This document shows positions 17,165-50,215 of a stretch of 64,000 nt of DNA, in pieces (positions within the stretch are counted from its first letter, which is position 1; each line of letters opens with the position of its first letter). The notes below the pieces were generated by a model that was not told the DNA's origin, did not search any database, and saw only the letters and a program-made list of their open reading frames with translations. Source of the stretch: an uncultured Candidatus Saccharibacteria bacterium (lineage in GTDB: Bacteria > Patescibacteriota > Minisyncoccia > Phycocordibacterales > WO2-35-19); NCBI GenBank assembly GCA_964589445.1, contig CAZPQX010000001.1, forward strand, positions 28,600-92,599, read 5' to 3'. The translations under genes were made by a program, and so were the position numbers.

Positions 17165-18041
17165 TTTTTACTTTTCTCATTTTTATAAAGACAAAAATGA
17201 GAATTATTATAAATATAGCCACAAAAGGATAGTAAGTATTTTTGGAATCAGGACTATATACTGACTCTGTGACATTTAAAGCAAAATCATAAGCCTTAAC
17301 GACTATTTTTAGGGATTCATCTTGTTTCTGTAAAACGTATGTATTTCCACTACGAACTGGGGGCAAATCCCCTTCTATAACCTCGTAGTAAGCCACTCCA
17401 GATTCATCATCTACTGTATTAAAAGATAAAAATTTTCGCCCATCAAAAACAGAACCTTCTTGTCCTAAATATATCTCAAAAGAGTTTGGGGGAGTTTGAT
17501 CTTTTTGTAGTATACGAGGCCATTCATCGCGAGACTCAAAGCCTTCTGGTTTTGGCAAAATATTTAATTCAAAATTATCTGTACTTACAGCGTCCTTAGT
17601 GCCCTTCCCGTCATTTAGATAGGCATTGATTTCGGATGTTTTGAATGTTACTTTTCCAGGCTTATCAAGGTTTAGGATTATTTTAAAAACAACCAAATCT
17701 TTAGAGTTGATACCATCTGGTATACCTCCGATAAAAGATACTTCTTTTTCGTTCATCGAGAGTGAAGGTTTTTGGGGCCAAAGAGAAAAAGCAGAGCCTG
17801 CAACACTTAAATCTCCGACTGAAATATTCTTTGATGCATAATCAAAGAATATTTTTCCCTCTATAGCGTTTATTTCCTTACCTTCTGAATCAGCTCTGAC
17901 ATCCACTACTATATTGTCTCCCACAAAAAAATCTTTTTCTTTTGTATCAAAGAATAATGTAGTAGCTGAGACAAAAGAAGGAGCAAACACCAAGCCCACA
18001 AGAACGATGAAAAATATTTTTTTGTTTGATAATTTATTCAT
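17145..18041 (-). CDS. second membrane-anchored cohesin-like protein
   Basis: 298 aa; signal peptide; 'DVRADSEGKEINAIEGKIFFDYASKNISVGDLSVAGSAFSLW' cohesin-like; C-terminal TM anchor 'YYPFVAIFIIILIFVFI'. Confidence 0.45.
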   Translation of the reverse strand: MNKLSNKKIFFIVLVGLVFAPSFVSATTLFFDTKEKDFFVGDNIVVDVRADSEGKEINAIEGKIFFDYASKNISVGDLSVAGSAFSLWPQKPSLSMNEKEVSFIGGIPDGINSKDLVVFKIILNLDKPGKVTFKTSEINAYLNDGKGTKDAVSTDNFELNILPKPEGFESRDEWPRILQKDQTPPNSFEIYLGQEGSVFDGRKFLSFNTVDDESGVAYYEVIEGDLPPVRSGNTYVLQKQDESLKIVVKAYDFALNVTESVYSPDSKNTYYPFVAIFIIILIFVFIKMRKVKNEIVKQ

Positions 18042-18043
18042 GT

Positions 18044-21000
18044 TTATTTTTTACTTCCCCATTCGTATAACATTATAGAGAAGTCCACCGAGTTCACTTT
18101 ATTGTCTTTGTTGATGTCTACGCAAGGATTTTTGAATGGTTGTAAGGTCTGCCAAAATGAAAGTAGTATTGAAAAGTCTACAGAGTTTACTTTTCTGTCT
18201 GCGTTGAAGTCCGAACCATTACAAGCATTTGGGGAAATAGTTGGGATGATAGGGGTAGCCACAGAGCCACCACCACTTCCTCCCCCACCACCTCCACTTC
18301 CACCACCATTAGATCCCCCACTGCCAGCAACCGCACTAAATGATCGGGAAGCGCTTGAACTTTCTATACCATAATACACCTTCACTTTAAAGAAGTAGTC
18401 CCCTGTACTTGGCACGTCAGCACTCAAGGTGGTATCGAAGTCTTCTCCTGGGTTTATAAATTTAGCAGCTAGTGAGTAGAAGACGTCATCCCCGCCTCCA
18501 CAAGTATTATTTACATTAGAGACAACACACCACTCATATTGATACTCTGCACCATTTGAACCTTCGTTTGTTATGGTGACATCTGCGGCTACCACAGGGA
18601 CAGTGTTATCAGAGATACCCCTAATGATAACTTGTGGTGGGTTTGATGTGACCGTCCAGTAGTCATTGCCTGGCAAAGTTTTACCTGATTCAACTGTGGC
18701 TGAGAACACACTTTCCCATGTGCCAGCTGCAGCGTCGTTTGCTGTAGTGTATGAATACGTGTAAGTACCTACACCAGTCCTTGTCATTGCTACATTATTT
18801 ACTACTACATTACGACTTGGATCATAGATAGTGACAGTAGGTGTGCTGAGTGAGTCAGTAAGTGTGCCGTCGTAGATAGTGGTGACTGTAGCTAAGTAAT
18901 TAGACCCAGCTGAGATCGTGCCGAAATCAGAAGTTGTGACTGTCCATGGTGACTGAGAAGAAAGTGTGAGGGATGTGAGTGTACGTGTTGAAGCATTCCA
19001 AACATCAGTCACTAATGTACCAAATGATGTGAGTGTGCGGCTTCCAGAGCTCCAAACGCTAGCTGGGATGCCGGTAATGCTTGAAAGTAGCTGGGAGACT
19101 ATAGAAGATGATGCAGTGTTGATGACAGCTGCGATTGATGTAGAAGCACTTAGGACTTTTGAATCAGTATTGGCATTTACTGCAGATGTGATACCTGAAG
19201 TTTGTGCATTTGTATTAGCATTTATGTTTGCAGCAAGAGATGTGGATGCTGTTAGTACAGCAGAGTTTGTGTTGGAGTTAACTGCATTTTGAGAGTTTGT
19301 CACCGCCGCTCCGAGCGAAGTTGATGCGCTCAAGACTTGGGAGTTTGTGTTGCTGTTGATATTGGCCTGTGCCGAAGTGATAGCAGCAGCTATAGAGGTT
19401 GAAGCTGTGTTTGTGTTGGCGTTTACTGCAGATGTGATGCCTGAAGTTTCGCTGTCTGTATTTGCGTTAATCTCAGATACGATCGATGACGAAGCGGTTT
19501 GGAGGTTACCGAGTGTAGCGAGTGATCCAGAGTCGAGATTAGCATCGGTGAGGCGGCGGGTGGCATAGCTCCAAACATCAGCAGCAGTGATTGAACCACC
19601 GGAGGTAATGGTCCTCGTACCATATGACCAGACGTCAGCGACTAATGTACCGAAGGAATCAAGCGTTCTCCCTCCATAGCTCCAAACGTTTGCTGGGATG
19701 CTTGTGATACTTCCAAGTACTTGAGAGACGATCGATGACGATGCCGTGTTGATGAGAGCCCCAATAGAAGTGGAGGCGCTTAGGACTCTTGAGTCAGTAT
19801 TTGCGTTTACGATGTCCACGACTGAGGTTGAGGCGTTGTTAACTCTAGTATTGGTGTTGTTATTAATACTTGTCTCGCTATTTGAAACTGCTGCTGCAAT
19901 GGATGTTGAAGCAGTTAGGACAGCTGAGTTGGTGTTTGAATTCACGAGAGCCACAACCGAAGAAGATGCATTACTTATCCTTGTGTCTGTGTTTGCATTA
20001 ACTGCACTTGTGATACCTGATGTCTGAGCATTTGTATTTGCATTTATGTTTGCAGCAAGAGACGTTGAAGCGGTTAGGATGGCAGAGTTGGTATTTGAGT
20101 TAACCTGCGAAGTGATGGATGACGAAGCTGTCTGTAGGTTTCCAAGCGTCGCCAAGGAGCCAGAATCCAGGTTTGCGTCGGTGAGGCGGCGTGTGGCAGC
20201 AGACCAAACTCCAGTTGCGGTGTCAGAGACCAGAGTACCAAAGGATGTGAGGGTGCGGCTTCCAGAGCTCCAAACGTTAGCTGGGATACCGGTAATGCTT
20301 GAAAGTAGCTGGGAAACTATAGACGAGGAGGCTGTATTCATAAAGGCTGCAAGAGAAGTTGATGCAGTCAAAACTCTTGAATCAGTGTTAGCGTTCACAG
20401 CAACTTGAGAGTTTGTCACCGCCGCTCCGAGAGAAGTTGATGCGCTCAAGACCTGAGAGTTGGTGTTGGAATTTATATTTGTTTGAGACGCGGTGATCGC
20501 GGCGGCGATACTAGATGAAGCGCTGTTTGTGTTTGCATTTACAGCACTTGTGACACCGGAAGTCTGAGTGTTTGTGTTTGCGTTGATATTTGCAGCGACA
20601 GATGTAGAAGCGGCTAATATAGCAGCGTCAGTGTTTGAGTTGACAGCAGAGGTGATGCCGGATGTTTGAGTGTTTGTATTGCTATTGATTTGCGAAGTGA
20701 TGGATGATGACGCTGTTTGAAGATTTGAGAGAGTTGCGAGAGAGCCCGAGTCGAGGGTAGCATCGCTGAGGCGGCGAGTGGCATAGCTCCAGACATCGGC
20801 CGCAGTCAATGAGCCTCCAGAAGTTATAGTCCTAGTACCATAAGACCATATGTCTGCGACTAGTGTACCGAAGGAATCAAGAGTTCTGCCTCCATAGCTC
20901 CAAACGTTTGCTGGGATAGAGGTGATACTTCCGAGTACTTGAGAGACGATGGAAGATGATGCTGTGTTAATAAGAGCTCCAAGAGAAGTTGAGGCAGTCA

Positions 21001-22771
21001 AAACTCTCGAATCAGTGTTTGAATTCACGAGAGCTACGACTGAAGATGAGGCATTATTAATTCGAGTGTCGGTATTGGAATTAACTGCAGAAGTAATAGA
21101 TGACGTCTGGGTATTCGTGTTTGCATTGATATTTGCAGCGAGAGATGTCGAAGCTGTTAGGATGGCAGCATTGGTATTTGAGTTAACTGTATTTTGTGAG
21201 TTTGTGACTGCCGCTCCAAGCGAAGTTGATGCACTCAAGACCTGAGAGTTGGTGTTGGAATTTATGTTTGCTTGAGAAGCAGTGATAGCCGCTGCAATAG
21301 AGGTTGAGGCATTGTTTGTGTTTGCGTTCACAGCCGATGTGATACCCGAGGTTTTGGAATCTGTATTTGAATTAATCTCAGATACAATTGAAGATGAAGC
21401 TGTTTGAATATTTGAAAGGGTCGCAAGTGAGCCTGTATCGAGGTTTGCATCTGTCAAACGGCGTGTTGCTGCACCCCATACACCAGTTGCAGTATCCGAT
21501 ACGAGTGTACCAAATGATGTGAGTGTACGACTTCCAGAGCTCCAGACGCTAGCTGGTATGCCGGTGATGCTTGAGAGGAGTTGGGATACGATAGATGACG
21601 AAGCGGTGTTGATGAGGGCTCCAAGAGAAGTCGATGCAGTCAAAACTCTTGAGTCAGTATTAGCATTCACAGCAACCTGTGAGTTTGTGACAGCAGCTCC
21701 AAGAGAGGTTGAGGCGCTCAAGACTTGGGAGTTTGTATTTGAGTTTATGTTTGTTTGAGAAGCAGTGATAGCGGCCGCGATACTAGAGGAAGCACTGTTT
21801 GTGTTTGCATTTACAGCACTTGTGACACCGGAAGTCTGAGTGTTTGTGTTTGCGTTGATATTTGCAGCGACAGATGTAGAAGCGGCTAATATAGCAGCGT
21901 CAGTGTTTGAGTTGACAGCAGAGGTGATGCCGGATGTTTGAGTGTTTGTATTGCTATTGATTTGCGAAGTGATGGATGATGACGCTGTTTGAAGATTTGA
22001 GAGAGTTGCGAGAGAGCCCGAGTCGAGATTTGCGTCGGTGAGGCGGCGGGTGGCGGCAGACCATACACCAGTTGCTGTATCGGATACCAATGTACCAAAT
22101 GATGTGAGACTTCGGCTTCCATAACTCCATATATCAGCCACTAAAGTACCGAAAGATGTAAGTGTCCTACCAGAAAAACCCCAAATTGTTGCTGGGAGGG
22201 TTGAAAATAAAGAAGATGAGGCAGTTTGAATTTGCAAATCAGTGTTGGCATTCACGGCACTTGTGATGCCTGAAGTTTCGCTGTCTGTATTGCTATTTAC
22301 CTGTGAGACTACAGATGATGATGCAACCTGAATCAATGAACCGAGTGAAGAAGAAGCGGTTTGCACATCTGAAAGTGAGGCCACTTGGCTTTCAAGAATA
22401 AAACTCTTGTTTTGTTTTATAAGATCAACCCCCGGAGTACCACAAGCTATTTCAGCTGGCCAAGTACCAAGGGTTGAAGAACCAGCAAAGTTGTAATAAT
22501 GCCATCCATTGGACTCCTCGCTCATCGTTACAGCATTAGCAAACTGTATGTTGTTAGGGCTCCATATGCTTATAGTACAGTCAGTAGTTGATGGTGTGTA
22601 ATCGTCGTTGTAAAGAAATTCCCCTATCTGAAATGCTGTGTCTTTAGGATACCTCGCTATAGCCAGAGCCAAAAGTGGAGTAAACAAAAAAATATTTACA
22701 AACAATATACTTAATATTGTCTTTTGAACTAAAAATTTTTTTATTTTTTCTTTATTCACAAAATTAATCAC
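18044..22771 (-). CDS. giant (1575 aa) Ser/Thr/Asn-rich tandem-repeat surface protein with C-terminal dockerin-like domain
   Basis: N-terminal signal/anchor; repeated blocks 'VWSYGSRTLTSFGTLV...RRLTDANLDSGSLATLSNLQTASSSI' and 'NANTNTQTSGITSAVN' occur at least 4 times. The C-terminus 'DFNADRKVNSVDFSILL...DINKDNKVNSVDFSIML' is a duplicated Ca-binding dockerin-type motif, preceded by a Gly-rich linker. Confidence 0.7.
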   Translation of the reverse strand: MINFVNKEKIKKFLVQKTILSILFVNIFLFTPLLALAIARYPKDTAFQIGEFLYNDDYTPSTTDCTISIWSPNNIQFANAVTMSEESNGWHYYNFAGSSTLGTWPAEIACGTPGVDLIKQNKSFILESQVASLSDVQTASSSLGSLIQVASSSVVSQVNSNTDSETSGITSAVNANTDLQIQTASSSLFSTLPATIWGFSGRTLTSFGTLVADIWSYGSRSLTSFGTLVSDTATGVWSAATRRLTDANLDSGSLATLSNLQTASSSITSQINSNTNTQTSGITSAVNSNTDAAILAASTSVAANINANTNTQTSGVTSAVNANTNSASSSIAAAITASQTNINSNTNSQVLSASTSLGAAVTNSQVAVNANTDSRVLTASTSLGALINTASSSIVSQLLSSITGIPASVWSSGSRTLTSFGTLVSDTATGVWGAATRRLTDANLDTGSLATLSNIQTASSSIVSEINSNTDSKTSGITSAVNANTNNASTSIAAAITASQANINSNTNSQVLSASTSLGAAVTNSQNTVNSNTNAAILTASTSLAANINANTNTQTSSITSAVNSNTDTRINNASSSVVALVNSNTDSRVLTASTSLGALINTASSSIVSQVLGSITSIPANVWSYGGRTLDSFGTLVADIWSYGTRTITSGGSLTAADVWSYATRRLSDATLDSGSLATLSNLQTASSSITSQINSNTNTQTSGITSAVNSNTDAAILAASTSVAANINANTNTQTSGVTSAVNANTNSASSSIAAAITASQTNINSNTNSQVLSASTSLGAAVTNSQVAVNANTDSRVLTASTSLAAFMNTASSSIVSQLLSSITGIPANVWSSGSRTLTSFGTLVSDTATGVWSAATRRLTDANLDSGSLATLGNLQTASSSITSQVNSNTNSAILTASTSLAANINANTNAQTSGITSAVNANTDTRISNASSSVVALVNSNTNSAVLTASTSIAAAVSNSETSINNNTNTRVNNASTSVVDIVNANTDSRVLSASTSIGALINTASSSIVSQVLGSITSIPANVWSYGGRTLDSFGTLVADVWSYGTRTITSGGSITAADVWSYATRRLTDANLDSGSLATLGNLQTASSSIVSEINANTDSETSGITSAVNANTNTASTSIAAAITSAQANINSNTNSQVLSASTSLGAAVTNSQNAVNSNTNSAVLTASTSLAANINANTNAQTSGITSAVNANTDSKVLSASTSIAAVINTASSSIVSQLLSSITGIPASVWSSGSRTLTSFGTLVTDVWNASTRTLTSLTLSSQSPWTVTTSDFGTISAGSNYLATVTTIYDGTLTDSLSTPTVTIYDPSRNVVVNNVAMTRTGVGTYTYSYTTANDAAAGTWESVFSATVESGKTLPGNDYWTVTSNPPQVIIRGISDNTVPVVAADVTITNEGSNGAEYQYEWCVVSNVNNTCGGGDDVFYSLAAKFINPGEDFDTTLSADVPSTGDYFFKVKVYYGIESSSASRSFSAVAGSGGSNGGGSGGGGGGSGGGSVATPIIPTISPNACNGSDFNADRKVNSVDFSILLSFWQTLQPFKNPCVDINKDNKVNSVDFSIMLYEWGSKK
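18950..22200. repeat. near-identical DNA tandem repeats (~1.27 kb period) inside the giant gene
   Basis: Antisense ORFs 20614-20796 and 21886-22122 encode identical C-terminal peptides ('...HPASPLLSTQTLTLLY'), offset by 1272 bp; long identical DNA blocks are visible by eye. Confidence 0.8.
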
Positions 22772-22776
22772 TCATT

Positions 22777-22944
22777 ACAAAAATGTTACTTCCACCGACT
22801 ACTGCAGGGATTTCTGAACAAAGTAATACTCCATTTGATTGTAATAATGCATCGTTAGGTACATAACCAGAATTTCCAGCAGGAATTTCTAGTACAAAAT
22901 CTTGTCTATCACCAGATTGTGCCAAAATATCGTTAATTGCCATA
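22777..22944 (-). CDS. small hypothetical protein (~55 aa)
   Basis: ORF 'MAINDILAQSGDRQDFVLEIPAGNSGYVPNDALLQSNGVLLCSEIPAVVGGSNIFVMSD', tightly packed between neighbouring minus-strand genes. Confidence 0.3.
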
Positions 22945-22947: not shown

Positions 22948-23634
22948 TTACAGACCTAATTTATTTGAAATTTTCTTTTTAACTAATTTTTTTGCAAAAG
23001 CTACAACTTCAGCTGTTGTTGTAGCTGCGGATTCATCTAGTATCTCTGGCTTTTCAGTAATTACATCATCTATATTTGTGGTATCTGATGATGTAGCATT
23101 GTTGTTTTTATTTTCTTCAGGAGTAGAAATGTTTGGGAAAATTGCTTCTGGTGTTGTAGTAGGAACCTCAAGAGAAGGGTTTGACTCTTCAATTGTTGTT
23201 GGTGTGGTTGTAGATATGTTTGATGGTGGAGCAATAATTGGTGGAGTAGTTGTAGCTGATTCGGCCACTTCCGAAGTTTCAGTATTTTCAGTAACCTCAG
23301 TTTCTTCTACTTGTTCTGTGGAAGGAGTGTCACCTGATTCTTGTGGTACGATATCCTCAACCACCTTATCGACAGCAACCTGTTTGCTGTCTTTTCCAAA
23401 AAGACTATCAGGGTCTAACTTCATGACTTCAGCAAGTAATTCATCTGGATTAGAAATAGAATACACCATACCTCCATATGCAATAAACTTTGCTTCATAT
23501 CTGACCAGTGGTTCATTCGGCATCGCAGCAGATGCGCAAATAATAGAATCTCCATCGTTGTAATAACCAGTTTGATCATAAACGACCATCGATGGGTTGT
23601 CTGTAAGCTTTTGTCCTTTTGTTAAATAGATCAT
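22948..23634 (-). CDS. hypothetical protein: ~90-aa N-terminal domain plus Pro/Thr/Glu-rich low-complexity linker
   Basis: 228 aa; 'TTTPPIIAPPSNISTTTPTTIEE' linker; in operon with surface genes. Confidence 0.5.
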   Translation of the reverse strand: MIYLTKGQKLTDNPSMVVYDQTGYYNDGDSIICASAAMPNEPLVRYEAKFIAYGGMVYSISNPDELLAEVMKLDPDSLFGKDSKQVAVDKVVEDIVPQESGDTPSTEQVEETEVTENTETSEVAESATTTPPIIAPPSNISTTTPTTIEESNPSLEVPTTTPEAIFPNISTPEENKNNNATSSDTTNIDDVITEKPEILDESAATTTAEVVAFAKKLVKKKISNKLGL

Positions 23635-23679: not shown

Positions 23680-26517
23680 TTACTGTGTTAACACTGCTCT
23701 TACCTTAATATTATCTCCGAGTGAAGCTGGGGTATAACGAATATAAGTTGTTTCGTTTCCTTTATCTGTCGTATTATAACTTCCCCAAGCTCCCCCAGTG
23801 TTTGTTGATTTTTGCCAAGTACCACTATTGGTAGAAGTGGTGTAATCATCTACAAGCAAATCACCATTTACTGCATTGTATAATCTCACACGTAAAGTTG
23901 GCACCGTTCCCCCAAAAGCGGTAGCGAAGCGCCAGACAAATTGTTTATTTACCGGACTCGATAATCCAACAGATGGTTGGTAGTGTGAGTCGGTAGTGAC
24001 AGCTGTGTCGTCATACACCAGAGTAATACTCATGATACGAGCAGGTATACAAAACGTACCAATTGTCGCAAACTCAAACATAAACTGAATTCTTGGTGCA
24101 CCAGAAATACCGGTTAGATCGCCCCCATAATTGATAAGAGTCCATTCACCCGTATTATCATCAATACCACTTATTCTAAAATATATATAGAAAGGCTCTG
24201 TGTTGAGCGAAAACTCACCACTACCAAGGGCGTCATCATGAGAAATAAACACACTTCTAAACTGAGTACAGTTTGGGGTATATAGAGCTGGAGTAATAAC
24301 TCTTTGATTTGAGGAAGATGCATACGTAGAGTGAGCAGAGAGAGGGAGTGAATAGAGTTGGGAAAGAGCTGTTGTTGTACCATGCTTTACGATATGTGCG
24401 ATACCATTTTCGCTCCAGATAGAAGTGACTTGAGAGGCAGTGTTGAAATGAGGGATGGTATAGCTGTTCCAATCAATGACATATGCAGAGCCGGCACCAA
24501 TAGTTCCAGCATTTGATGAAAGTGTGATAGCGGTGGCAGAAGTGAAAGCAGAAATTGTGTACCAAGTAGAAATGGCAGTTGGATCAGTAGAACCAAAACC
24601 GATACGATATCCAACCATAGCTGCGACAAAAAATGTGTTGGTGCCAGTGACCGCGGTACCAGACACAGCCACTGTTCCCGAAGAAATATAAGCATTTCCC
24701 AAAGATGATGCTTGATCTTGCTGTTTATCATCAACCCCCCAAATGTGATCAAAAGCATCTCCAGCAGATGTAGGATATTTTGTAACATAGTGTCTTACAC
24801 CAGTAGCACCAGTAGTAGTAACAATCAATCTATCCATAGCATCTGCAATCTCGACACTGCTCAATAACGAAGTTGCGGGAAATGTACTCGCTGATCCTGG
24901 AGGAATTTCTGGTCGGTTATCAGAGATCCATCCCAGATTCCCAGCAAATATCTTATCAAGCCACGCGCGATAAATACGAGTAGTGGTGACAAAATACAGA
25001 GAGTGCTCCCCTGATCCTGGGCCGTGATTCAAAGTGCCACATCGCCCATTATTTACCCCTGACAAAGTACCTGTGACAAGTTGAGGAGCTGTTGAGACGA
25101 CGTCTGCTGAATCGATAATATAAACAGCACCCGGAGCAATAGTTCCAGCGGATGATGAAAGTGTGATAGCGGTGGCAGAAGTGAAAGCAGAAATTGTGTA
25201 CCAGGTAGTGACCGTGGCAGGACTCGTAGTATTAAAACCAATTTTCATCCCCACCATACTCGAGGTGAATGTTGTGCCAGTGCCAGTCACAGCAGTGCCA
25301 GCCACTTCGACAGTTCCTGTAGTGTAGTAGGCAATGGACATGGTCATCTTGCCAGAGGCGATAGCGCCAGTTGCTCGCAGATTGTAGCGATAGACACGGG
25401 CAAAAGTCGAACCAAATCCATCAAGCACATATGCATAATGAAGGCCCTTGGTCACCTCATCGGCAATGGTCAATCCACATGCTGCTTGGTTGGTGACGAC
25501 GTTGCCAGGAGTACCAGCGTCAGAGAGCCAGTATGTGGCTTTGATATTATCAGTAGTAGTTGCGACGGGAATAGTCGTACCAGTTGGTAAAAAATCAGCG
25601 TAGTTAACTCCTTTCACAAGATGTAGTCCACCATTCGCGACTGTGGCATTGGTAGAAGTGATGGCAAATCGTAATTCCTCGATCACATATGCCGTGCCAG
25701 CAGCAAGAGTGCCTGCACTACTTGCAAGTGTAATACCCGTCTCACTACCAATTGCAGATATGACATACCAGCTCACGATAGCGGTTGGGTCAGTGGAGCC
25801 AAAACCAATACGTGCTCCGACAGCAATGCCTTCATCAAGCCATTTTGTGCCATTGCCAGTCACTGCAGTAGCAGAAACCTCGACAGTGCCAGTCGTATGT
25901 AAATACCTCAGAGACCTAAACCCACGCAAAGTGTGAGCGGCGGCTGAAGTAAGGAGAGTTGCCACAATAAATCCCTTCCATGTATACACGGAAGTGGTTT
26001 TATTGTATTCATAGAGACAAATTTTTCTTGGAGCAACAGAAGTGGCTAAGTTTTCAATCATAAATACCCAGTCAACAGTCGAGCTGTAGGTAATCGCGTG
26101 AGGATACATCATTGGGGTGTTATAAACGACAACATATGGTGTACCGGCAGCGATGGTTCCAGCGGATGAGCCCAAGGTGATACCAGTAGTCGAGGCTCTG
26201 GCACTAATCGCATACCAAGCTGTCACTTTGGCTGGATCAGTCGAACCAAAACCTATCGACATACCAATCATTGAGGTTTGGAAATTTGTAAGGTTTCCAG
26301 TAACCGCTGTGCCAGAGACAGTAACGGTCCCTACATTATCAACCACTTCCTGCATTGGTAGAGCTGTAGCGACAGGCAGAGGTCCGACATATTTATCGGT
26401 CACTGCGGTACCAGTTTTTTGTACGATAAGTGTTCCCAAATTTGTCTTAGTTGCATCATACGAGCTAATTGGTGTCGTACTTCCCGTGAATTTATGTTTT
26501 ACAGCGCGGTATGGCAT
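23680..26517 (-). CDS. large paralogous repeat protein A (945 aa), unknown family
   Basis: Internal ~60-aa repeats 'GTV.VSGTAVTG.GT.F...MVGM.IGFGSTDPT.I..WY.IS...S.T.ITL.SSAGTI.AG..YVI'; conserved C-terminal module 'DDKQQDQ...NEITYIRYTP...KVR.LLTQ' shared with B and C; no signal peptide. Confidence 0.7.
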   Translation of the reverse strand: MPYRAVKHKFTGSTTPISSYDATKTNLGTLIVQKTGTAVTDKYVGPLPVATALPMQEVVDNVGTVTVSGTAVTGNLTNFQTSMIGMSIGFGSTDPAKVTAWYAISARASTTGITLGSSAGTIAAGTPYVVVYNTPMMYPHAITYSSTVDWVFMIENLATSVAPRKICLYEYNKTTSVYTWKGFIVATLLTSAAAHTLRGFRSLRYLHTTGTVEVSATAVTGNGTKWLDEGIAVGARIGFGSTDPTAIVSWYVISAIGSETGITLASSAGTLAAGTAYVIEELRFAITSTNATVANGGLHLVKGVNYADFLPTGTTIPVATTTDNIKATYWLSDAGTPGNVVTNQAACGLTIADEVTKGLHYAYVLDGFGSTFARVYRYNLRATGAIASGKMTMSIAYYTTGTVEVAGTAVTGTGTTFTSSMVGMKIGFNTTSPATVTTWYTISAFTSATAITLSSSAGTIAPGAVYIIDSADVVSTAPQLVTGTLSGVNNGRCGTLNHGPGSGEHSLYFVTTTRIYRAWLDKIFAGNLGWISDNRPEIPPGSASTFPATSLLSSVEIADAMDRLIVTTTGATGVRHYVTKYPTSAGDAFDHIWGVDDKQQDQASSLGNAYISSGTVAVSGTAVTGTNTFFVAAMVGYRIGFGSTDPTAISTWYTISAFTSATAITLSSNAGTIGAGSAYVIDWNSYTIPHFNTASQVTSIWSENGIAHIVKHGTTTALSQLYSLPLSAHSTYASSSNQRVITPALYTPNCTQFRSVFISHDDALGSGEFSLNTEPFYIYFRISGIDDNTGEWTLINYGGDLTGISGAPRIQFMFEFATIGTFCIPARIMSITLVYDDTAVTTDSHYQPSVGLSSPVNKQFVWRFATAFGGTVPTLRVRLYNAVNGDLLVDDYTTSTNSGTWQKSTNTGGAWGSYNTTDKGNETTYIRYTPASLGDNIKVRAVLTQ

Positions 26518-26520
26518 GGA

Positions 26521-28947
26521 TTAATTTTGAGTTAAGAGTGCCCTGACACTAATATTACCGAGTGGCGATGTGGGGATATAGCGAATATAGGTGATTTCGT
26601 TTGTTTTGTCAGTATCGTTATACCCTACCCAATTATTTCCCCCATCGATTGATTTTGTCCAAGCACCATTTGTTGGACTGACCGTGGTATCAGTAAAAAT
26701 AGACACATTGGTAGCGGCGTTAAATAATTCGACTTTAAGTGTCGGCACTACCCCACCGAAAGGCTGAGTAAATCTCCAAACAAAGTGCTCACTTGCAATA
26801 CTCGATAACCCAGTAGAGAGTTGGTAATGTGAATCAGTTGACCCATCTTCGTATGTGACGACCACTTTCATGATGCGTGACGGCAAGCAGATTGCACCTA
26901 TCGTAAAAAACTCAAACATAAATTGAATCGCACTTGCTGCAGTCACTCCAGATAAATCACCAGCGTCATCGACTAGTACCCATGAACTCGTAGCGTCATC
27001 TCCAATATTGGCCGTGCGATAATATACCCTAAATGTCTCAGGGGGCAATATCAAAGGGTTGGCTCCAATATAATGGTTATCGCAAATCAGCACTTGATCA
27101 AATTTTACACAACCAGTTGTATCAATTGATGGAGTGATAATTCTCTGACTCGCAGATGAGGCGTATGTCAAGTGAGCCCCAAACGGCAATGAGTACATCT
27201 GATTTAATAGAGCAGTTGCACCCATCCTCACAATATGGACGACACCGTTACTTGCAGCACATGATAATAGTTGGGCCCCGGTGTTAAAGTGGATTGGTGC
27301 TCTCGGATCGGCGATTGATTGATCTTGTTGCTTATCATCGATACCAAAGATGTGATCAAATGGGGTTGTATCTGTCGAAGGATATCTGGTGACATAATTA
27401 CGAAGCGAGGTGCTAGCAGTAAAGTTGGTAATAACAAAACGATCAATGGAGCTAATATAGGTCATGTTGGTCATGGTGGCAGTGGCTGGGAAAGTAGCGA
27501 CGCCACCAGGGGGGATCTCTTGTCGAGCATTAGCCGCTGTCGCAAAAGGTGTGGCGGCAGCAGTGATAGCGCTAACCGCCGCACAATAGAGACGGGTGGT
27601 AGTAACAAAATACAAAGAAGAAGAGCCTGAAAGTGGGCCATGAGCAGTAGTAGCGATTTCCAAATTTTGCGCTGACTGGTTAGGAATCGTACCAGTCAAA
27701 GCTTGTGTACCAGTAATAACGATATTAGCACCAGCAAGTTGCATTTTACCAGAAGCAGTAGTGTTGTTGGAGCACAAATTATATTTGTATATTATTGCGT
27801 TTGATGTGTTTGTACCATTCAAGACATAGGCAAAATGAGTTTGTTTGTTTGTTTCTGCCTCCACAGCAAGACCGTTCGCTGCAGTGTTTGTAACTGCGCC
27901 GGCTCCCGCATCACAGAGCCAATAGACTCCCCTCTGGTCATTCACCGAAGTCGCGATAGAAGGAAATGTGGAGCCTGCAGTCGTGAAGTCGTGGTAGCCA
28001 GCACCTTTGAGTAGGAAGAGGCCGCCGTTTGCGGCGGTGCTGTTTGTGAGGGCAATAGCAAATCTCAACTCCTCGATGACGTAAGAAGTACCTGCAGGGA
28101 TAACACCAGGTGAGGTGGTAAGTCCGATAGAAGTATTGCTATTGATTTGTCCGATATGATACCACTGCGTGATCTGCGTTGGGTCAGTGGAGCCAAAACC
28201 GATGCGGGGACCGAGGCCTCCGGCGACAGCAGTGGCGCCGGTGCCGGCGGCAATACCATCCGTTTGAAATAGTGTATTTGTCCCAGTAACAATACAATCC
28301 GCAATCACAAAAGCAGTACCAGCAGCATAGGCGCTGGAGGCTCCTAAGATGTTCATAGTGGAAGTGGTGGCAAAAGAAATGATTGGATACCAACAATTAA
28401 TTTGAGCTGGGTTAGTACTTCCAAAACCAATCATTTTACCGACATATGTTGCGAGGAATCCTGTTGCAGAGTGAGTGACGAGACCTGCAGTTGACACAGT
28501 CACGGTACCAGTTGAGTACACTGATGATGGAGCAGCTACAGCTACAGTGCCCGTAGTGTGGAGGTAGCGGAGTGCACGGAAGCCACGGTTTACGTTGGTA
28601 CCGTTTGGTGTGGTTGCTGTTATGAATCCTTTCCAGTTGTAGGTAGCGAGACTCTTGTTGTATTCATATAAAAAGATACGTTTCGTGGCACCAGTGCCGT
28701 TTTCAAGAAGAAACACCCAATCAATAGTGGAGCTATATGTGATGGCATGAGGAAATACCATGGCCACACCAGTGGATTCTTCCATAGGTCTCGCTACCGC
28801 TACTGGCAATGGCCCCACAAAATTATCTTCCGGATTGGTACCACTTTTTTGGATCATCAATGTTCCCAAGTTTGTCTTGGTTGAATCGTATGAAGCTATT
28901 GGTGTCGTTGCTCCGTTGAAGATGTGTTCGACTGCGCGTAGTGACAT
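26521..28947 (-). CDS. large paralogous repeat protein B (808 aa)
   Basis: First 348 aa identical to protein C; C-terminal module shared with A and C. Confidence 0.7.
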   Translation of the reverse strand: MSLRAVEHIFNGATTPIASYDSTKTNLGTLMIQKSGTNPEDNFVGPLPVAVARPMEESTGVAMVFPHAITYSSTIDWVFLLENGTGATKRIFLYEYNKSLATYNWKGFITATTPNGTNVNRGFRALRYLHTTGTVAVAAPSSVYSTGTVTVSTAGLVTHSATGFLATYVGKMIGFGSTNPAQINCWYPIISFATTSTMNILGASSAYAAGTAFVIADCIVTGTNTLFQTDGIAAGTGATAVAGGLGPRIGFGSTDPTQITQWYHIGQINSNTSIGLTTSPGVIPAGTSYVIEELRFAIALTNSTAANGGLFLLKGAGYHDFTTAGSTFPSIATSVNDQRGVYWLCDAGAGAVTNTAANGLAVEAETNKQTHFAYVLNGTNTSNAIIYKYNLCSNNTTASGKMQLAGANIVITGTQALTGTIPNQSAQNLEIATTAHGPLSGSSSLYFVTTTRLYCAAVSAITAAATPFATAANARQEIPPGGVATFPATATMTNMTYISSIDRFVITNFTASTSLRNYVTRYPSTDTTPFDHIFGIDDKQQDQSIADPRAPIHFNTGAQLLSCAASNGVVHIVRMGATALLNQMYSLPFGAHLTYASSASQRIITPSIDTTGCVKFDQVLICDNHYIGANPLILPPETFRVYYRTANIGDDATSSWVLVDDAGDLSGVTAASAIQFMFEFFTIGAICLPSRIMKVVVTYEDGSTDSHYQLSTGLSSIASEHFVWRFTQPFGGVVPTLKVELFNAATNVSIFTDTTVSPTNGAWTKSIDGGNNWVGYNDTDKTNEITYIRYIPTSPLGNISVRALLTQN
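27905..28947. repeat. ~1.04 kb segment identical to 30557-31599 (5' parts of paralogs B and C)
   Basis: Identical antisense ORFs 28065-28304 = 30717-30956 and 28184-28396 = 30836-31048 (offset 2652 bp); the two proteins are identical through '...GVYWLCDAG'. Confidence 0.85.
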
Positions 28948-28950
28948 AAA

Positions 28951-31599
28951 TCAATTTTGAGTCAGCAAGGATCTGACTTTAATGTTATCTGGCAAAGTGT
29001 CTGGTGTGTAGCGGATATAGGTGATCTCATTACCTTTATCTGTATCGTTGTACGATATCCAGTTAGTACCTCCATCGATTGTTTTCTCCCACGTTCCAGC
29101 TTGAGTAACTGAATCGTCATCAAGAAGTAGTCCTCCAGTGACTGCGTCATATAGTCTGATTCGCAACGTTGGCACAACCGAACCAAAAGCTGTAGCAAAA
29201 CGCCACGCAAACTGTTTGCTTGACTCTACTGTTTTACCACTTGATGGTTGGTAATGTGAGTCAGTTGAAAGGTCATCATATAAAACAGCGACGGACATTA
29301 TCCTACCGGGTACACAAAGTAAACTGATAGTTGTAAATTCAAACATAAATTGAATACTAGTTGATGGTGACAAACCAGTTAAATCACCATCTTCTGCCAA
29401 TTGGATCCATGCGCCGGTATTGTCTGTTATTCCACTTGTTCTATAAAAAGAAAATGTAGAACCTGTCGGTATACGGAATTCCTCACTTCCTAAGTGATCA
29501 ACGACTGAAGTCATCATTCTTTTAAATGAACTACAATCAGGAGTAAATATTTCAGGGGTTATGACTCGCTGGTTAGTTGATTCTGAATAAAACCAATGGG
29601 CACCGAGCGGTAGGGCATACATCTGACAGAGCGCGGCTGTAGCACCATGTTTTACTATGTGAGCTATGCCGTTTTCACTCCAAACAGAAGTAACCTGAGA
29701 AGCGGTGTTGAAGTGGATCGGAGCATTAGGGTCAGCAATTGACTGGTCTTGCTGTTTATCGTCAAGACCAAAAAATCGGTCAAACTGGTCCCCCGCTACC
29801 GCGGGGTAACGAGTCACATAATGTTTAAACGCGGTAGCACCTGTAGTCAATACAATCAACCGATCGATAGAATCTGAAATTTCAATAACGTTCAGGGCTC
29901 CTGTAGCTGGAAAGGTGCTCACTGAGCCAGGTGGGATTTCTGGTCGGTTGTCAGAGATCCAGCCGAGATTACCATCAAATATCTTTGATATCGCTGCTCT
30001 ATAAATACGAGTTGCGGTTAAGAAATAGAGAGATTTTTCGTTAATACCTGGACCATGAAGCAATGTGCCTACACGTCCATTATTTACACCAACCACAGTA
30101 CCTGTGACAAGTTGTGGTGCGGTAGATATTACATCAGCAGAGTCAATGATAAATGAAGCACCTGGACCGATACTTCCAGCGGAAGCCGAAAGAACAACAA
30201 CAGTTGTAGATGTAAATGAAGCAATGGTATACCAGGTAGTTACATTGGCTATACTTGTGGTACTAAAAGCGATACGCATGCCCACCATTGCTGAAGTGAA
30301 CACAGCACCTGAAGCCGTTACAGATGTACCTGATACTGTGACAGTAGTCGCACTTGAAGTAGAAGTGACATATGCAATAGTCATTAGCATTTTACCTGAT
30401 GTTACAGTACCGGTTGCTCTCAAGTTGTACCGGAAGCATCTCATAAATGTAGAACCGATACCATCAAGTACATATGCGTAATGGAGTCCTTTGTTGAGTT
30501 CTGTGTCTATAGCAAGACCACACGCCGCTTGGTTGGTGACTACGTTACCAGTGGTGCCCGCATCACAGAGCCAATAGACTCCCCTCTGGTCATTCACCGA
30601 AGTCGCGATAGAAGGAAATGTGGAGCCTGCAGTCGTGAAGTCGTGGTAGCCAGCACCTTTGAGTAGGAAGAGGCCGCCGTTTGCGGCGGTGCTGTTTGTG
30701 AGGGCAATAGCAAATCTCAACTCCTCGATGACGTAAGAAGTACCTGCAGGGATAACACCAGGTGAGGTGGTAAGTCCGATAGAAGTATTGCTATTGATTT
30801 GTCCGATATGATACCACTGCGTGATCTGCGTTGGGTCAGTGGAGCCAAAACCGATGCGGGGACCGAGGCCTCCGGCGACAGCAGTGGCGCCGGTGCCGGC
30901 GGCAATACCATCCGTTTGAAATAGTGTATTTGTCCCAGTAACAATACAATCCGCAATCACAAAAGCAGTACCAGCAGCATAGGCGCTGGAGGCTCCTAAG
31001 ATGTTCATAGTGGAAGTGGTGGCAAAAGAAATGATTGGATACCAACAATTAATTTGAGCTGGGTTAGTACTTCCAAAACCAATCATTTTACCGACATATG
31101 TTGCGAGGAATCCTGTTGCAGAGTGAGTGACGAGACCTGCAGTTGACACAGTCACGGTACCAGTTGAGTACACTGATGATGGAGCAGCTACAGCTACAGT
31201 GCCCGTAGTGTGGAGGTAGCGGAGTGCACGGAAGCCACGGTTTACGTTGGTACCGTTTGGTGTGGTTGCTGTTATGAATCCTTTCCAGTTGTAGGTAGCG
31301 AGACTCTTGTTGTATTCATATAAAAAGATACGTTTCGTGGCACCAGTGCCGTTTTCAAGAAGAAACACCCAATCAATAGTGGAGCTATATGTGATGGCAT
31401 GAGGAAATACCATGGCCACACCAGTGGATTCTTCCATAGGTCTCGCTACCGCTACTGGCAATGGCCCCACAAAATTATCTTCCGGATTGGTACCACTTTT
31501 TTGGATCATCAATGTTCCCAAGTTTGTCTTGGTTGAATCGTATGAAGCTATTGGTGTCGTTGCTCCGTTGAAGATGTGTTCGACTGCGCGTAGTGACAT
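28951..31599 (-). CDS. large paralogous repeat protein C (882 aa)
   Basis: N-terminal 348 aa identical to B; middle and C-terminal parts are mosaic with A (e.g. 'SLYFLTATRIYRA...GNLGWISDNRPEIPPGS'). Confidence 0.7.
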   Translation of the reverse strand: MSLRAVEHIFNGATTPIASYDSTKTNLGTLMIQKSGTNPEDNFVGPLPVAVARPMEESTGVAMVFPHAITYSSTIDWVFLLENGTGATKRIFLYEYNKSLATYNWKGFITATTPNGTNVNRGFRALRYLHTTGTVAVAAPSSVYSTGTVTVSTAGLVTHSATGFLATYVGKMIGFGSTNPAQINCWYPIISFATTSTMNILGASSAYAAGTAFVIADCIVTGTNTLFQTDGIAAGTGATAVAGGLGPRIGFGSTDPTQITQWYHIGQINSNTSIGLTTSPGVIPAGTSYVIEELRFAIALTNSTAANGGLFLLKGAGYHDFTTAGSTFPSIATSVNDQRGVYWLCDAGTTGNVVTNQAACGLAIDTELNKGLHYAYVLDGIGSTFMRCFRYNLRATGTVTSGKMLMTIAYVTSTSSATTVTVSGTSVTASGAVFTSAMVGMRIAFSTTSIANVTTWYTIASFTSTTVVVLSASAGSIGPGASFIIDSADVISTAPQLVTGTVVGVNNGRVGTLLHGPGINEKSLYFLTATRIYRAAISKIFDGNLGWISDNRPEIPPGSVSTFPATGALNVIEISDSIDRLIVLTTGATAFKHYVTRYPAVAGDQFDRFFGLDDKQQDQSIADPNAPIHFNTASQVTSVWSENGIAHIVKHGATAALCQMYALPLGAHWFYSESTNQRVITPEIFTPDCSSFKRMMTSVVDHLGSEEFRIPTGSTFSFYRTSGITDNTGAWIQLAEDGDLTGLSPSTSIQFMFEFTTISLLCVPGRIMSVAVLYDDLSTDSHYQPSSGKTVESSKQFAWRFATAFGSVVPTLRIRLYDAVTGGLLLDDDSVTQAGTWEKTIDGGTNWISYNDTDKGNEITYIRYTPDTLPDNIKVRSLLTQN
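30557..31599. repeat. second copy of the ~1.04 kb direct repeat
   Basis: See 27905-28947. Confidence 0.85.
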
Positions 31600-31613: not shown

Positions 31614-32204
31614 TTAAACTTCTAAATAATCCATATTAATCTGCACTGTTCCTGTACCATCTATGACCGCATAAAAAACTTCATCTACCCCGCCTTCTAT
31701 ATAATTTGGATGGTTGTTTGAACCATACAAGCCCCCAGTCTTCGGTGCATAATAATATTCGAAGTTTGTACCGCCTGCGGTAAACCGGAAGGCGACACTA
31801 GTCATATCGGCCGACAAAGAAAATTTTGCATTATAGATACGTATTTTTTTACCAGAAGCTGGTGTGTGCACAGTGCCCGAGCTAGTCAAACCTATAGTTT
31901 TTTTGAGTATAAGATTCCCCGTCTTTATTGCTGGGTCTATCCTTGTATTTGAACTGTCTCTGACACCCACTACACTAGTTGATGGTGTACCTCCCATCAC
32001 CAAAGCTTCTGCTTTACTTGGTAAAAGCTGACTTGCGACGACACCAGCACCGACTATCCCAGCTAGCTTAATAAAAGATCTTTTATCGTTATCAAATTCA
32101 ATATTTGACTCCTGTACCAGATCAACAGGAATAGTATTTGCCACTTGAGTGACATCTACTTTTTTATTTTTTACAAGCTTAAAAGAGTACTCTGAAGAAA
32201 TCAT
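31614..32204 (-). CDS. secreted protein with twin-arginine-like (KR) Tat signal peptide
   Basis: 196 aa; 'DKRSFIKLAGIVGAGVVASQLLPSKAEA' = S/T-(K/R)R-x-F-L/I-K motif + hydrophobic h-region + AxA cleavage site; first gene of the surface operon; divergent from tatC/tatA. Confidence 0.55.
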   Translation of the reverse strand: MISSEYSFKLVKNKKVDVTQVANTIPVDLVQESNIEFDNDKRSFIKLAGIVGAGVVASQLLPSKAEALVMGGTPSTSVVGVRDSSNTRIDPAIKTGNLILKKTIGLTSSGTVHTPASGKKIRIYNAKFSLSADMTSVAFRFTAGGTNFEYYYAPKTGGLYGSNNHPNYIEGGVDEVFYAVIDGTGTVQINMDYLEV

Positions 32205-32265
32205 TTTTAAATTGTGAATACATTATGGATTATATTATGAAGAAACGATGAATACAAAATAATCT

Positions 32266-33042
32266 GTGTATATGATGAAGAAAAATAATGTATACTGCTC
32301 ATATAAAAATCAAATGGACGAATTTAATAAAAAAATAGAGAAATTTTTACCCTTTTTAGAAGATTTGCGCGAGCGTTTATATAGAGGAGTTATATTATTT
32401 GTTATTTTTTTTATAGTAGGCTTCTTTTCTACTGGTTTAATCCTAAAAAAAGTTTTAAACATTATAAAAATTGACCAGGTCACAATTTCCACATCTTCAC
32501 CATTTCAATTTGCAGACATTGCGATGGATATGGGTTTTTTCCTTAGCATAATGGTTTCGGTACCCTATATAATCTATAGTTTTTATGCATTTATAGTTCC
32601 TGCCCTAACAAGGAAAGAGAAAATTAAATTTTTAAAATCTATCCCCATAAGTATAGGGTTGTTTGTTGTGGGATTTTTGTATGGTTTTTTTATACTTTAT
32701 TATGCACTCGGAATTTTAGCATCACTAAATACAAGCTTGGGGATATCCAACATATGGGATATAAGCCAATTCCTATCACAGATTTTTATCACGGCCGCAC
32801 TCTTAGGTTTTGTATTTGAATTCCCTCTTGTGTTGACCTTATTTGTAAAGATGGGGATGATAAACAATCAACTACTTAAAGATAAAAGGCGTGCAGCTTA
32901 CTTTTTTATACTCCTCCTTACATCTTTACTTCCCCCAACTGACGGCATATCATTATTAGCAATGTCATTGCCACTCGTGTTATTATACGAAGCGACAATA
33001 TTAATAAATAATAAAAAAGAACATGCTTGGATTAGGACCTAG
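32266..33042 (+). CDS. tatC: Sec-independent protein translocase TatC
   Basis: 258 aa; 6 TM segments; 'FLEDLRERLYRGVILFVIFFIVGFF' matches the TatC family. Confidence 0.8.
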   Translation: MYMMKKNNVYCSYKNQMDEFNKKIEKFLPFLEDLRERLYRGVILFVIFFIVGFFSTGLILKKVLNIIKIDQVTISTSSPFQFADIAMDMGFFLSIMVSVPYIIYSFYAFIVPALTRKEKIKFLKSIPISIGLFVVGFLYGFFILYYALGILASLNTSLGISNIWDISQFLSQIFITAALLGFVFEFPLVLTLFVKMGMINNQLLKDKRRAAYFFILLLTSLLPPTDGISLLAMSLPLVLLYEATILINNKKEHAWIRT

Positions 33043-33190
33043 AGAAATAATTATTTTGGCCGTTGTACTAGTTTTGCTTTTTGGATCAAAGAAAATACCA
33101 GAACTTGCTAGAAGCATAGGTGAAGCTATCAGACATGTTAGAAACGGTTTTTCTGATGTAGAAAAAGATAAATCAGATAAGTTATCTTAG
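33023..33190 (+). CDS. tatA: Sec-independent translocase TatA/E
   Basis: 55 aa, not in the ORF track (<60 aa): 'MLGLGPREIIILAVVLVLLFGSKKIPELARSIGEAIRHVRNGFSD' is a canonical TatA TM + amphipathic helix; overlaps the tatC stop. Confidence 0.7.
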   Translation: MLGLGPREIIILAVVLVLLFGSKKIPELARSIGEAIRHVRNGFSDVEKDKSDKLS

Positions 33191-33219
33191 TTTCCCAAAT
33201 AATTATTACCAAATAGTAA

Positions 33220-33813
33220 ATGAGTAATTGGAAGCGAATTTCTTTGATAGTTTTTGTGTTAATTGGAGGCACAGCTACTTTTAGCTATTGGTCTATAAAC
33301 CAATTTAATTTGGCTTTTAATAGTCTAGATACTTCGTACCTCGCAAGCACACACGAAGCATACTCTTCTCTTAGAAGACAGGTTGATTTGGCTTCCACCT
33401 CTCCCCAAGCTTCACAAATTTCAGCTTCTTCTACTGATACTAATATCGAATTATCATTCTCTTTTCCTAAAAAAGGCTTCAACATATATAGCGGATGTAC
33501 TTACGAGATACCACTACAATCTTCCACTACTATAGCTTCAATAGAAGCTAGTCTGATAGACAGAGGTACAAAAGATTTGATTAATATTACAAAAAGCGGC
33601 TTACAAAAAAACATCGAGTTAGAAAATAGTTCACAAAATTTTAAATGGAAAGTTGGATCAGTTTGGCCAGGAGAATACTATATACAAACATCAAAAATAA
33701 ACGGCTCTGATATACAAACAAAGAGTGAGATATTCCTTATAAACAGAATGCCAGAAGACATAGACGTCCCCGCACAAAAAGAAATCTGCAAACAATCAAA
33801 CGGAGTTCTATAG
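33220..33813 (+). CDS. hypothetical membrane-anchored extracytoplasmic protein
   Basis: 197 aa; N-terminal TM 'ISLIVFVLIGGTATF'; no known motifs. Confidence 0.5.
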   Translation: MSNWKRISLIVFVLIGGTATFSYWSINQFNLAFNSLDTSYLASTHEAYSSLRRQVDLASTSPQASQISASSTDTNIELSFSFPKKGFNIYSGCTYEIPLQSSTTIASIEASLIDRGTKDLINITKSGLQKNIELENSSQNFKWKVGSVWPGEYYIQTSKINGSDIQTKSEIFLINRMPEDIDVPAQKEICKQSNGVL

Positions 33814-35253: not shown

Positions 35254-35283
35254 CTTATGTTAATTTATGTGCAATATGTTTGA

Positions 35284-36330: not shown

Positions 36331-36343
36331 TTAATACCCAGCC

Positions 36344-36610: not shown

Positions 36611-36721
36611 TTACACAATCTTTTTGTTTATAAGTAAAATATTTTAAATTTAATACAAACACTTGACTATTTATTATATTTTTGTTAATAAAACCTATAC
36701 TTTAATTCAAAATAACAACAT

Positions 36722-50105: not shown

Positions 50106-50180
50106 CATTGACAACCTGTTAGTTTTGTTGACCCATATGCTCGATGCCGAGCTGTGACCCACAAAGCTACAGTTGTAAGA

Positions 50181-50207: not shown

Positions 50208-50215
50208 TTTACTAC

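Follow-up and report, generated by a model that had tools for sequence, protein, structure and literature searches.

Gene A and the tatC-tatA pair

The stretch analysed here (the window, 64 kb of contig CAZPQX010000001.1) is part of a patescibacterial chromosome of the candidate phyla radiation (CPR), with genes including ftsA, ftsZ, lepB, GAPDH and class II ribonucleotide reductase, and it contains a gene cluster, designated A to G, headed by the gene of a small protein with a predicted twin-arginine translocation (Tat) signal, which stands beside a divergent tatC-tatA pair. The CPR, or Patescibacteria, account for a large share of bacterial diversity and are ultra-small cells living attached to other cells, and to our knowledge little of their surface machinery has been described, type IV pili aside. 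The region covered was the window itself, the loci of relatives (L numbers) being taken as 20-kb pieces, and the shared gene set was defined by BLAST comparison across loci. Genes A to G of the window all lie on the minus strand with intergenic gaps of -20 to +45 bp, and their families measure about 200 amino acids (aa) for A, 790-950 for B, 190-270 for C, 57-61 for D, 430-1575 for E, about 290 for F and 410-590 for G.

Gene A (31614..32204, minus strand) encodes a 196-aa protein and is the first gene of this operon, as the original prediction had stated. The protein is laid out as a leader (residues 1-67), a single 'VVGV-x5-N-x-RI-x-PA' stalk repeat and a C-terminal jelly-roll head (~98-196). 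The predicted Tat signal peptide (32004..32204, minus strand; residues 1-67), defined from the translation, from alignments and from motif statistics on the 120 closest database clusters, comprises in order a long n-region with an N-terminal YSF-x-L motif, the Tat consensus motif D-N-D-K-R-S-F-I-K (32067..32093, minus strand; residues 38-46), a Gly/Ala-rich h-region, and PSKAEA with the putative AxA cleavage site. The motif is directly followed by LAGIVGAGVVASQLLPSKAEA; past it the protein runs LAGIVGAGVVASQLL, PSKAEA, LVMGG, and residues 1-67 terminate in AEA. Compared with the consensus S/T-R-R-x-F-L-K, the D-K-R-S-F-I-K of A has Lys for the first Arg, so that KR replaces RR, and agrees in the remainder; KR is a tolerated natural Tat variant, known from Salmonella TtrB and the chloroplast Rieske protein. 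The NCBIfam model TIGR01409 (TAT_signal_seq) matched residues 42-67 with 19.2 bits against a cut-off of 16.7, and this score, together with the conservation of the motif in the homologues, supports the KR-type Tat signal that had been claimed for the 196-aa open reading frame (ORF).

The pattern D-x-x-[KR]-R-x-F-[LI]-K is present in 120/120 A homologues, the second R, the F, the [LI] and the K being invariant, and the first twin position is occupied by K in 107 and by R in 13 of them (~89% KR). The h-region of the family is always 15 aa, with 43% Gly+Ala and a mean Kyte-Doolittle (KD) value of 1.86, against KD values of 2.2-2.9 for the general secretory (Sec) signals of E, F, G and two further exported proteins of the window, and a basic residue is found among the last six positions ahead of AxA in every homologue (120/120). 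It is by such weakly hydrophobic h-regions and basic c-regions that Tat signals avoid the Sec pathway. AxA followed by [LY][VI][MF]G occurs in 114/120 homologues under a strict pattern and in 120/120 under a looser one, while the n-region has a median length of 45 aa, a maximum of 100, and a conserved N-terminal (Y/H)-S-F-x-L motif. In the A homologue at L013:1694-2698, the N-terminal 'FLPNSHSFLLVR...' motif is present three times ahead of the Tat motif, and this triple 'FLPNSHSFLLVR' suggests a binding site, for a chaperone or similar, and not a spacer. A regular-expression scan of the window ORFs of at least 50 aa for [KR]R-x-hydrophobic-hydrophobic with a Tat-like h-region gave no second real gene, in line with the claim that A carries the sole Tat signal of the window. 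Clustering of the A family yields more than 500 groups at 90% identity and 362, with variants counted, at 50%; every named homologue belongs to a Parcubacteria-type lineage, all members are annotated 'hypothetical' and are without a Pfam domain, and the A profile had no match among PDB sequences.

On the plus strand, divergent from A, tatC (32314..33042) encodes 242 aa from the ATG at 32314 and matches Pfam PF00902 over 207/208 profile positions (E = 2.5e-39) and Aquifex TatC (4b4a) over its full length, residues 13-232 (E = 9e-16). Its score lies below the TIGR00945 equivalog cut-off (114 vs 132.7), which marks it as a divergent TatC member; the Glu in 'LEDLR' and that in 'RKEK' are invariant among six patescibacterial TatCs. 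The longest ORF begins with a GTG at 32266, from which the 60-bp gap to A of the original prediction is counted; since five orthologous TatCs align from residue 17 of this long ORF, the true start is the ATG at 32314 and the gap has to be corrected to 109 bp. A promoter and terminator scan of this divergent region found fewer matches than in shuffled sequence and was uninformative. The tatA gene (33023..33190, plus strand; 55 aa) shares 20 nt with the 3' end of tatC (stop 33042), so that both members of the pair were found as they had been described; with 57.3 bits for TIGR01411 (cut-off 53.9) and E = 2.6e-14 for PF02416, it is assigned to TatA/E, a family of short proteins characterised by a transmembrane (TM) helix at the N-terminus, a hinge Gly and an amphipathic helix. 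The 64 kb contain a single tatA and a single tatC, with no tatB and no second TatA/B-family gene, and this single TatA-family gene indicates a minimal TatAC system; in L003, two tatA genes stand side by side.

The cluster is conserved in Patescibacteria, namely in Paceibacteria/Parcubacteria and ABY1-type groups. In an A-anchored set, made up of the contigs of six A homologues on long assemblies and the close relative L119, A clusters with tatC and/or tatA in 7/7 contigs (L006 reaches its contig end after tatA only), and in the six long contigs A and the tat genes share a strand and apparently form one operon. In a TatC-anchored set, for which a single genome of each species was searched for proteins related to the patescibacterial TatC, 54 loci from 54 species-level genomes were recovered, and 29/54 have a match to the A-family hidden Markov model (HMM) upstream on the same strand. 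In 18 of the 25 loci without A, the sequence upstream is shorter than 5.3 kb or the cluster genes reach the contig edge, and five (L009, L012, L014, L018, L021) have a start-truncated large upstream ORF, 711 to 2,826 aa as read, which exceeds 2,770 aa in L009, L014 and L021 and takes most of the 10-kb flank; only L031 and L061 are left without an explanation. The loci lacking A were considered as an argument against dedication of the tat pair, and they are mostly explained by these start-truncated ORFs. In about 0.9 Mb of loci, the A family are the sole recurrent proteins with [KR]R-x-F-L-K, h-region and AxA, and the linkage with tatCA is kept across more than 50 genomes and several cluster architectures. 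As the linkage recurs in independent genomes, the association is far above chance, and as A is present in 29/54 loci with most exceptions truncated, the linkage is a conserved property of this TatC clade; the dedicated local Tat pair of the original prediction is thereby supported, 23 of the 25 other loci being truncated. All the TatC loci are patescibacterial in content, yet L012, L018, L021, L042, L044, L049, L050, L052 and L059-L061 are titled 'uncultured Gammaproteobacteria' or 'Pseudomonadales', and many public records of metagenome-assembled genomes with a Parcubacteria-type cluster are titled 'Saccharibacteria'; the taxonomic labels of those third-party annotation (TPA) assemblies look unreliable.

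The usual gene order is A, one to three B genes, C, D, tatC and tatA, plus E, F and G. Relative to, for example, L004, the A-to-D block of the window is inverted between E and tatC, which accounts for its divergent layout; the same layout is found in L119, whose A is 85% identical, and is therefore a lineage variant and not an assembly artefact. The window TatC, TatA and the following 197-aa gene (32314-33813) are closest, with 63-74% identity, to a sub-clade with type-2 cargo (L008-L027), whose loci carry another A head and a 590-1800-aa partner, whereas the window cargo is type 1; this looks like cassette replacement and inversion at a constant tatCA anchor.

Partner proteins and phage relatives

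Gene B1 (28951..31599, minus strand; 882 aa, no signal) lies 14 bp downstream of A, and A and B are 6-19 bp apart in the window and in 4/5 other B-containing loci, and 77 bp apart in L005. The protein comprises a six-bladed beta-propeller, inserted small beta-barrel repeats ('G-x-RIGFGST-x-P-x-QI-x-x-WY') and a C-terminal beta-sandwich, its structure model (predicted local distance difference test 83.4; predicted TM-score 0.79) being all-beta. It is followed by two paralogues, B2 (26521..28947, minus strand; 808 aa), recognised by BLAST and sequence, and B3 (23680..26517, minus strand; 945 aa). B1 and B2 have near-identical N-terminal ~400 aa; those of B2 are ~84% identical to B1 of L004, and the window B1 is comparably near to B2 of L004. 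The repeat motif of B3 matched phrog_1591, 'tail fiber protein' (N-terminal region), in three stretches (E = 1.3e-17). Taken together, B1-B3 (23680-31599) share 85-91% identity with their three B counterparts in a Vogelbacteria genome (L004:10672-18591), against 57% for A, 54% for C, 63% for D and 48% for TatC of the same operon, and the far higher identity of B suggests that lineages have recombined or laterally exchanged the B cassette; between L006 and the window, B1 is 74% and A 62% identical. The guanine plus cytosine (GC) content was considered as a sign of horizontal transfer of A to E and was discarded: B and E have 0.45 vs 0.32 for tatC, but housekeeping genes have 0.44-0.455, and the values at third codon positions (GC3) overlap.

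The A proteins themselves are modular. Type-2 A proteins, 245-335 aa, were found in TatC-anchored loci, and they have in common with type 1 only the leader (SF-x-L, KR motif, h-region, AxA) and the next ~30 residues, L-I/V-M-G-S-x-P-x-x-x-VVGVK-x-x-x-N-x-RINPA-x-E, their C-terminal domains being unrelated to the jelly-roll head of the window. A full-library profile search yielded 362 clusters at 50% identity and separated leader-only matches with other C-terminal domains from head-only matches, in which the jelly-roll head ends proteins of 314-621 aa with coiled-coil N-termini and no leader; the VVGVK...INPATEE unit has one to four copies in these proteins. The idea that the conserved ~30 residues after AxA belong to an export or sorting signal was discarded: other family members have one to four copies of the unit, and it is present in phage homologues without a leader, which identifies it as a stalk repeat outside the signal. 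Head type and downstream gene vary together: B comes after the jelly-roll head, 590-870-aa proteins with the motif 'HRWLQDLADD' after the type-2a head, and 960-1700-aa proteins starting '...VWEWCRFAP' after the type-2b head; L003 and L039, with type-1 A and no B, are the exceptions. B, C, D and the downstream proteins of all cluster variants have conserved non-hydrophobic N-termini and no signal, and a partner without a signal is thus encoded beside the signal-bearing A, as in the hitchhiker mode of Tat export. Judged from these sequences, the co-variation, though imperfect, is the pattern that would be expected of a physical pair of A and its partner.

Relatives of both proteins were detected in phages. 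A Foldseek search of predicted viral structures with B1 returned podovirus 'tail tubular protein B', 'P22 gp10' and 'stabilization protein' with E-values of 4e-11 to 1e-6, at TM-scores of just 0.12-0.28. Contig L062 (20.9 kb), which has terminase, head-tail adaptor and major-head-protein matches, carries a leaderless A-head homologue (P0254) and, directly after it, a B homologue that is colinear from residue 1 with 43% identity (E = 2e-37). A scan of IMG/VR with the A profile found three viral contigs with leaderless head homologues; L063 is a clear phage, with primase, the large terminase subunit TerL (4.8e-183) and portal (2.3e-128), its head homologue standing immediately after the portal gene, and L065 has the order major head protein, 156-aa ORF, head homologue, B. 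A scan of IMG/VR with the B alignment found 53 viral loci with full-length B relatives, in none of which tatC, tatA, E, F or G was present; a head homologue lies just upstream of B in three of them (A-head then B: L065/L088, L086, L087), and L081 is a phage with TerL (9.5e-92), portal and a protease/capsid fusion. The A head and B are a gene pair also present in phages and are homologues of phage virion proteins, the cellular version having a Tat leader for the coiled-coil N-terminus and being wired to tatCA and E/F/G. A prophage or mobile element was considered and rejected, as the cellular clusters have no capsid, portal or terminase, their flanks vary by genome, and they are conserved in more than 50 genomes; the window serine recombinase (52061-53413) lies 20 kb from the cluster.

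Phage virion proteins fold and assemble in the cytoplasm, and given that the A head and B are homologous to such proteins, the cell would need an exporter of folded proteins and not Sec. The original prediction had suggested a folded or cofactor-containing substrate; the folded state is favoured indirectly, by the virion homology of the head and B, whereas the cofactor was dropped, as there is no conserved Cys/His cluster among the invariant residues of A and the head is a plain jelly roll.

Further genes of the cluster and the window

Gene C (22948..23634, minus strand; 228 aa, no signal) encodes a conserved ~80-aa N-domain and a Thr/Pro/Glu-rich tail, and its orthologues lie between B and D in L001 and L004-L007, i.e. 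in each B-encoding type-1 locus, with none in L003, which has no B. No Pfam match was obtained for C and no PHROG match for A, C, D, F or G; from its position, C is a candidate assembly or export chaperone. Gene D (22764..22943, minus strand; 59 aa, no signal) is just under the 60-aa ORF threshold, and its orthologues (57-61 aa) stand immediately upstream of tatC in L001, L004, L005 and L007.

Gene E (18044..22771, minus strand; 1575 aa) encodes a repetitive surface protein that carries a Sec-type signal and ends in a dockerin (PF00404 Dockerin_1, 28.6 vs 22.9 cut-off), and its orthologues adjoin the cluster in 6/7 A-anchored contigs (L006 stops at D) and in most of the 54 TatC-anchored loci. 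Most of the protein is made up of imperfect repeats, each several hundred residues long and rich in Ser, Thr, Asn and Ala ('NSNTNTQTSGITSAVNANT...WSYGSRTLTSFGTLV'), in at least four copies, and Tandem Repeats Finder, run on the DNA, saw none of them. The E proteins of L005:14702-17875 and of L057 open with '...RRNRRFLLSVWVLLALPLFFASSASA', an RR-containing signal, whereas that of the window is plain Sec-type; E might also be a Tat client in some genomes. Gene F (17145..18041, minus strand; 298 aa) encodes a Sec signal, an extracellular domain common with G and a C-terminal TM anchor, and gene G (15932..17164, minus strand; 410 aa) encodes a Sec signal, the F-type N-domain, an immunoglobulin-like region, a TM anchor and a cytoplasmic tail. 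The N-domain common to F and G measures ~150 aa, and the G orthologue of L004 matches Big_13 with 33.4 bits (cut-off 27). F and G were considered as cohesins for the dockerin on E, and Pfam and PDB searches lent this no support, neither protein having a cohesin match.

Right after tatA, a 197-aa protein with an N-terminal TM segment or signal is encoded (33220..33813, plus strand), without a Pfam match; by tblastn, its homologues are found directly after tatA in 18/54 TatC loci (including L008-L014, L017-L020, L022-L025, L027, L031 and L038) and in L119, so that it is a conserved neighbour within the TatC sub-clade of the window. The region straight after the tat genes (33832-38764) holds an envelope-polysaccharide set: a 473-aa secreted protein, a family 2 glycosyltransferase (GT2) and a polysaccharide deacetylase with a peptidoglycan-binding domain; GT2 and deacetylase genes are also close to the cluster in L003 and L119. 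In L008, the gene before tatC of a type-2 cluster (6850-7653) encodes a protein whose match to the peptidoglycan hydrolase domain PF01832 falls just short of the threshold (29.8 vs 30.2 bits), and in the phage contig L087 (8432-10186) an endolysin-domain protein is encoded two genes past the B homologue; a wall-cutting activity may be part of the module.

Elsewhere in the window, a polyprenyl synthase, a phytoene/squalene synthase and a phytoene-desaturase-like FAD oxidase are encoded in a row at 41448-44822, a pathway of carotenoid or squalene type that would not be expected of a CPR genome with its reduced metabolism. The region at 50017-58872, beside tRNA-Ser, has a higher GC content (0.46-0.53) and contains the large serine recombinase at 52061-53413 (GC3 0.62) and, at 54067-58872, a 1601-aa fusion of a superfamily 1 helicase with an MTES_1575/DUF559 endonuclease domain; the region probably represents a defence island or an integrated element.

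Proposed export route and comparison with known systems

These observations are most readily explained, with a probability of roughly 0.6, if A is a genuine Tat substrate with a KR signal and a dedicated TatC-TatA pair, and if the cluster exports a pre-folded, phage-derived surface module. In the best-supported reading, Tat is preferred to Sec because what is exported is a structural module of phage type that is already folded, and probably oligomeric, when made. A and B would be co-translated from their tightly coupled genes and would fold, and probably associate, in the cytoplasm, possibly assisted by C and D; TatC would then recognise the KR signal of A, TatA would mediate passage, and signal peptidase would cut A after AEA. 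B would be carried out bound to A as a hitchhiker, with C and D as putative assembly or signal-binding chaperones by analogy with HybO/HybC/HybE, and this is proposed because B has no signal, is tightly coupled to A, co-varies with the head and is paired with an A-head in phages. Together with the E/F/G scaffold, the module would be displayed on the surface, where its plausible role in these epibiotic cells is attachment or recognition.

Several points weigh against this proposal. KR Tat signals are generally weaker than RR signals, and the HMM support is borderline, TIGR01409 being a short model that picks up just 9/26 A-family members at E <= 0.01. We infer the A-B interaction and the piggyback step from gene order, co-variation and missing signals, and B, C and D could stay in the cytoplasm. 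The A head has no match by tblastn in the curated INPHARED phage genomes, the phage evidence coming from metagenomic viral contigs, and no cohesin is recognisable in F or G, either with Pfam even at E <= 5 or among PDB sequences. A more specific version, which is tentative, is that a domesticated phage module, consisting of the jelly-roll head and a propeller protein resembling a nozzle or fibre, serves as a surface organelle, put together in the cytoplasm as it is in phages, with private TatAC export, a KR carrier and a ~90-kDa piggyback partner; in that case the exchangeable head/partner cassettes and E/F/G would serve host recognition or attachment.

Among the alternatives, it is somewhat unlikely, though a serious contender, that TatAC exports A alone, which would be a small fibre or head protein in folded, perhaps trimeric, form, while B, C and D stay cytoplasmic or take another route. 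The signal is indeed on A only, the jelly-roll head with its stalk repeat could itself be an oligomer requiring folded export, and no computed result underlies an A-B interaction; against this, B, with its propeller and its repeats of tail-fibre type, is related to phage virion proteins, a cytoplasmic job for up to three paralogues of 800-950 aa is hard to picture, and the co-variation of head type with the downstream protein and the adjacency of A-head and B in phages suggest a physical pair. It is improbable that the KR motif and hydrophobic stretch form an uncleaved, Tat-inserted anchor, as in Rieske, with A as a tethered stalk and head: the unusually long n-region (median 45, up to 100 aa), whose conserved SF-x-L would face the cytoplasm, and the sequence past the putative cleavage site, conserved as much as the signal, fit an anchor, whereas AxA is nearly universal, a signal peptidase I gene is present in the window (9690-10373), and a stable TM helix would normally be longer than the 15 Gly/Ala-rich residues of the h-region. 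An ordinary Sec signal or chance look-alike, with tatC-tatA serving substrates elsewhere in the genome, would suit the KR in place of RR, the modest TIGR01409 score and the failure of most family members to reach E = 0.01, but is effectively excluded by the conserved synteny with tatCA across more than 50 genomes, by the KR/RR swap around an invariant R-x-F-L-K core, and by the low hydrophobicity and the basic c-region in 120/120 homologues, unlike the neighbouring Sec signals.

The A-to-G cluster is widespread, strongly conserved and unannotated, and as an exported, pre-folded module it would give a concrete reason for the retention of Tat in minimal genomes with almost no redox enzymes, of which it appears to be the main, perhaps the only, Tat client. 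Exchangeable cassettes are what is expected of host-recognition devices, and should the tentative view of a domesticated phage module be true, this would be the first Tat-dependent phage-derived surface apparatus and would explain Tat in reduced genomes. A natural, family-wide KR signal with its own TatC also offers a clean system for studying the recognition of KR by TatC.

Substrate-linked minimal TatAC systems are known from monoderms, such as phoD-tatAd-tatCd of Bacillus subtilis and the tatAC beside fepABC of Staphylococcus aureus. As in these, TatA and TatC without TatB stand beside an exported substrate that has the sole Tat-type signal of the neighbourhood; unlike in these, the substrate is a cofactor-less phage-like jelly roll and not a phosphodiesterase or a haem/iron peroxidase, the operon adds large signal-less partners and a Sec-dependent surface scaffold, and KR is the norm. 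Tat hitchhiker hetero-oligomers are represented by HybO-HybC of Escherichia coli hydrogenase-2 and by DmsAB, and here too the signal is on the small subunit, the adjacent large partner has none, and C and D are placed like signal-binding chaperones; unlike there, no cofactor is involved, the partners are virion homologues and not redox enzymes, and the complex is deduced from the genes. With TtrB of Salmonella and the chloroplast Rieske protein, A has in common the Lys for the first twin Arg and the otherwise kept consensus, but in the A family KR is found in ~89% of members, with a translocase of their own, and is not an isolated exception. Compared with podovirus nozzle proteins (T7 gp12 'tail tubular protein B', P22 gp10) and with capsid cement and turret jelly rolls, the cellular copies are chromosomal, without capsid, portal or terminase, and have the Tat leader and the wiring to tatCA and E/F/G, while, with TM-scores to the phage proteins being low, the phage role may be that of a nozzle, fibre or decoration protein. 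Full-text literature searches turned up general statements on the occurrence of TatA and TatC in Paceibacteria, Microgenomatia and Saccharimonadia (PMC9166423), and nothing on this cluster or on Tat-exported phage-like proteins. The export logic, a substrate-linked TatAC with possible hitchhiking, is of a known kind; what is new is the cargo, along with a KR signal common to the whole family and the conserved cluster.

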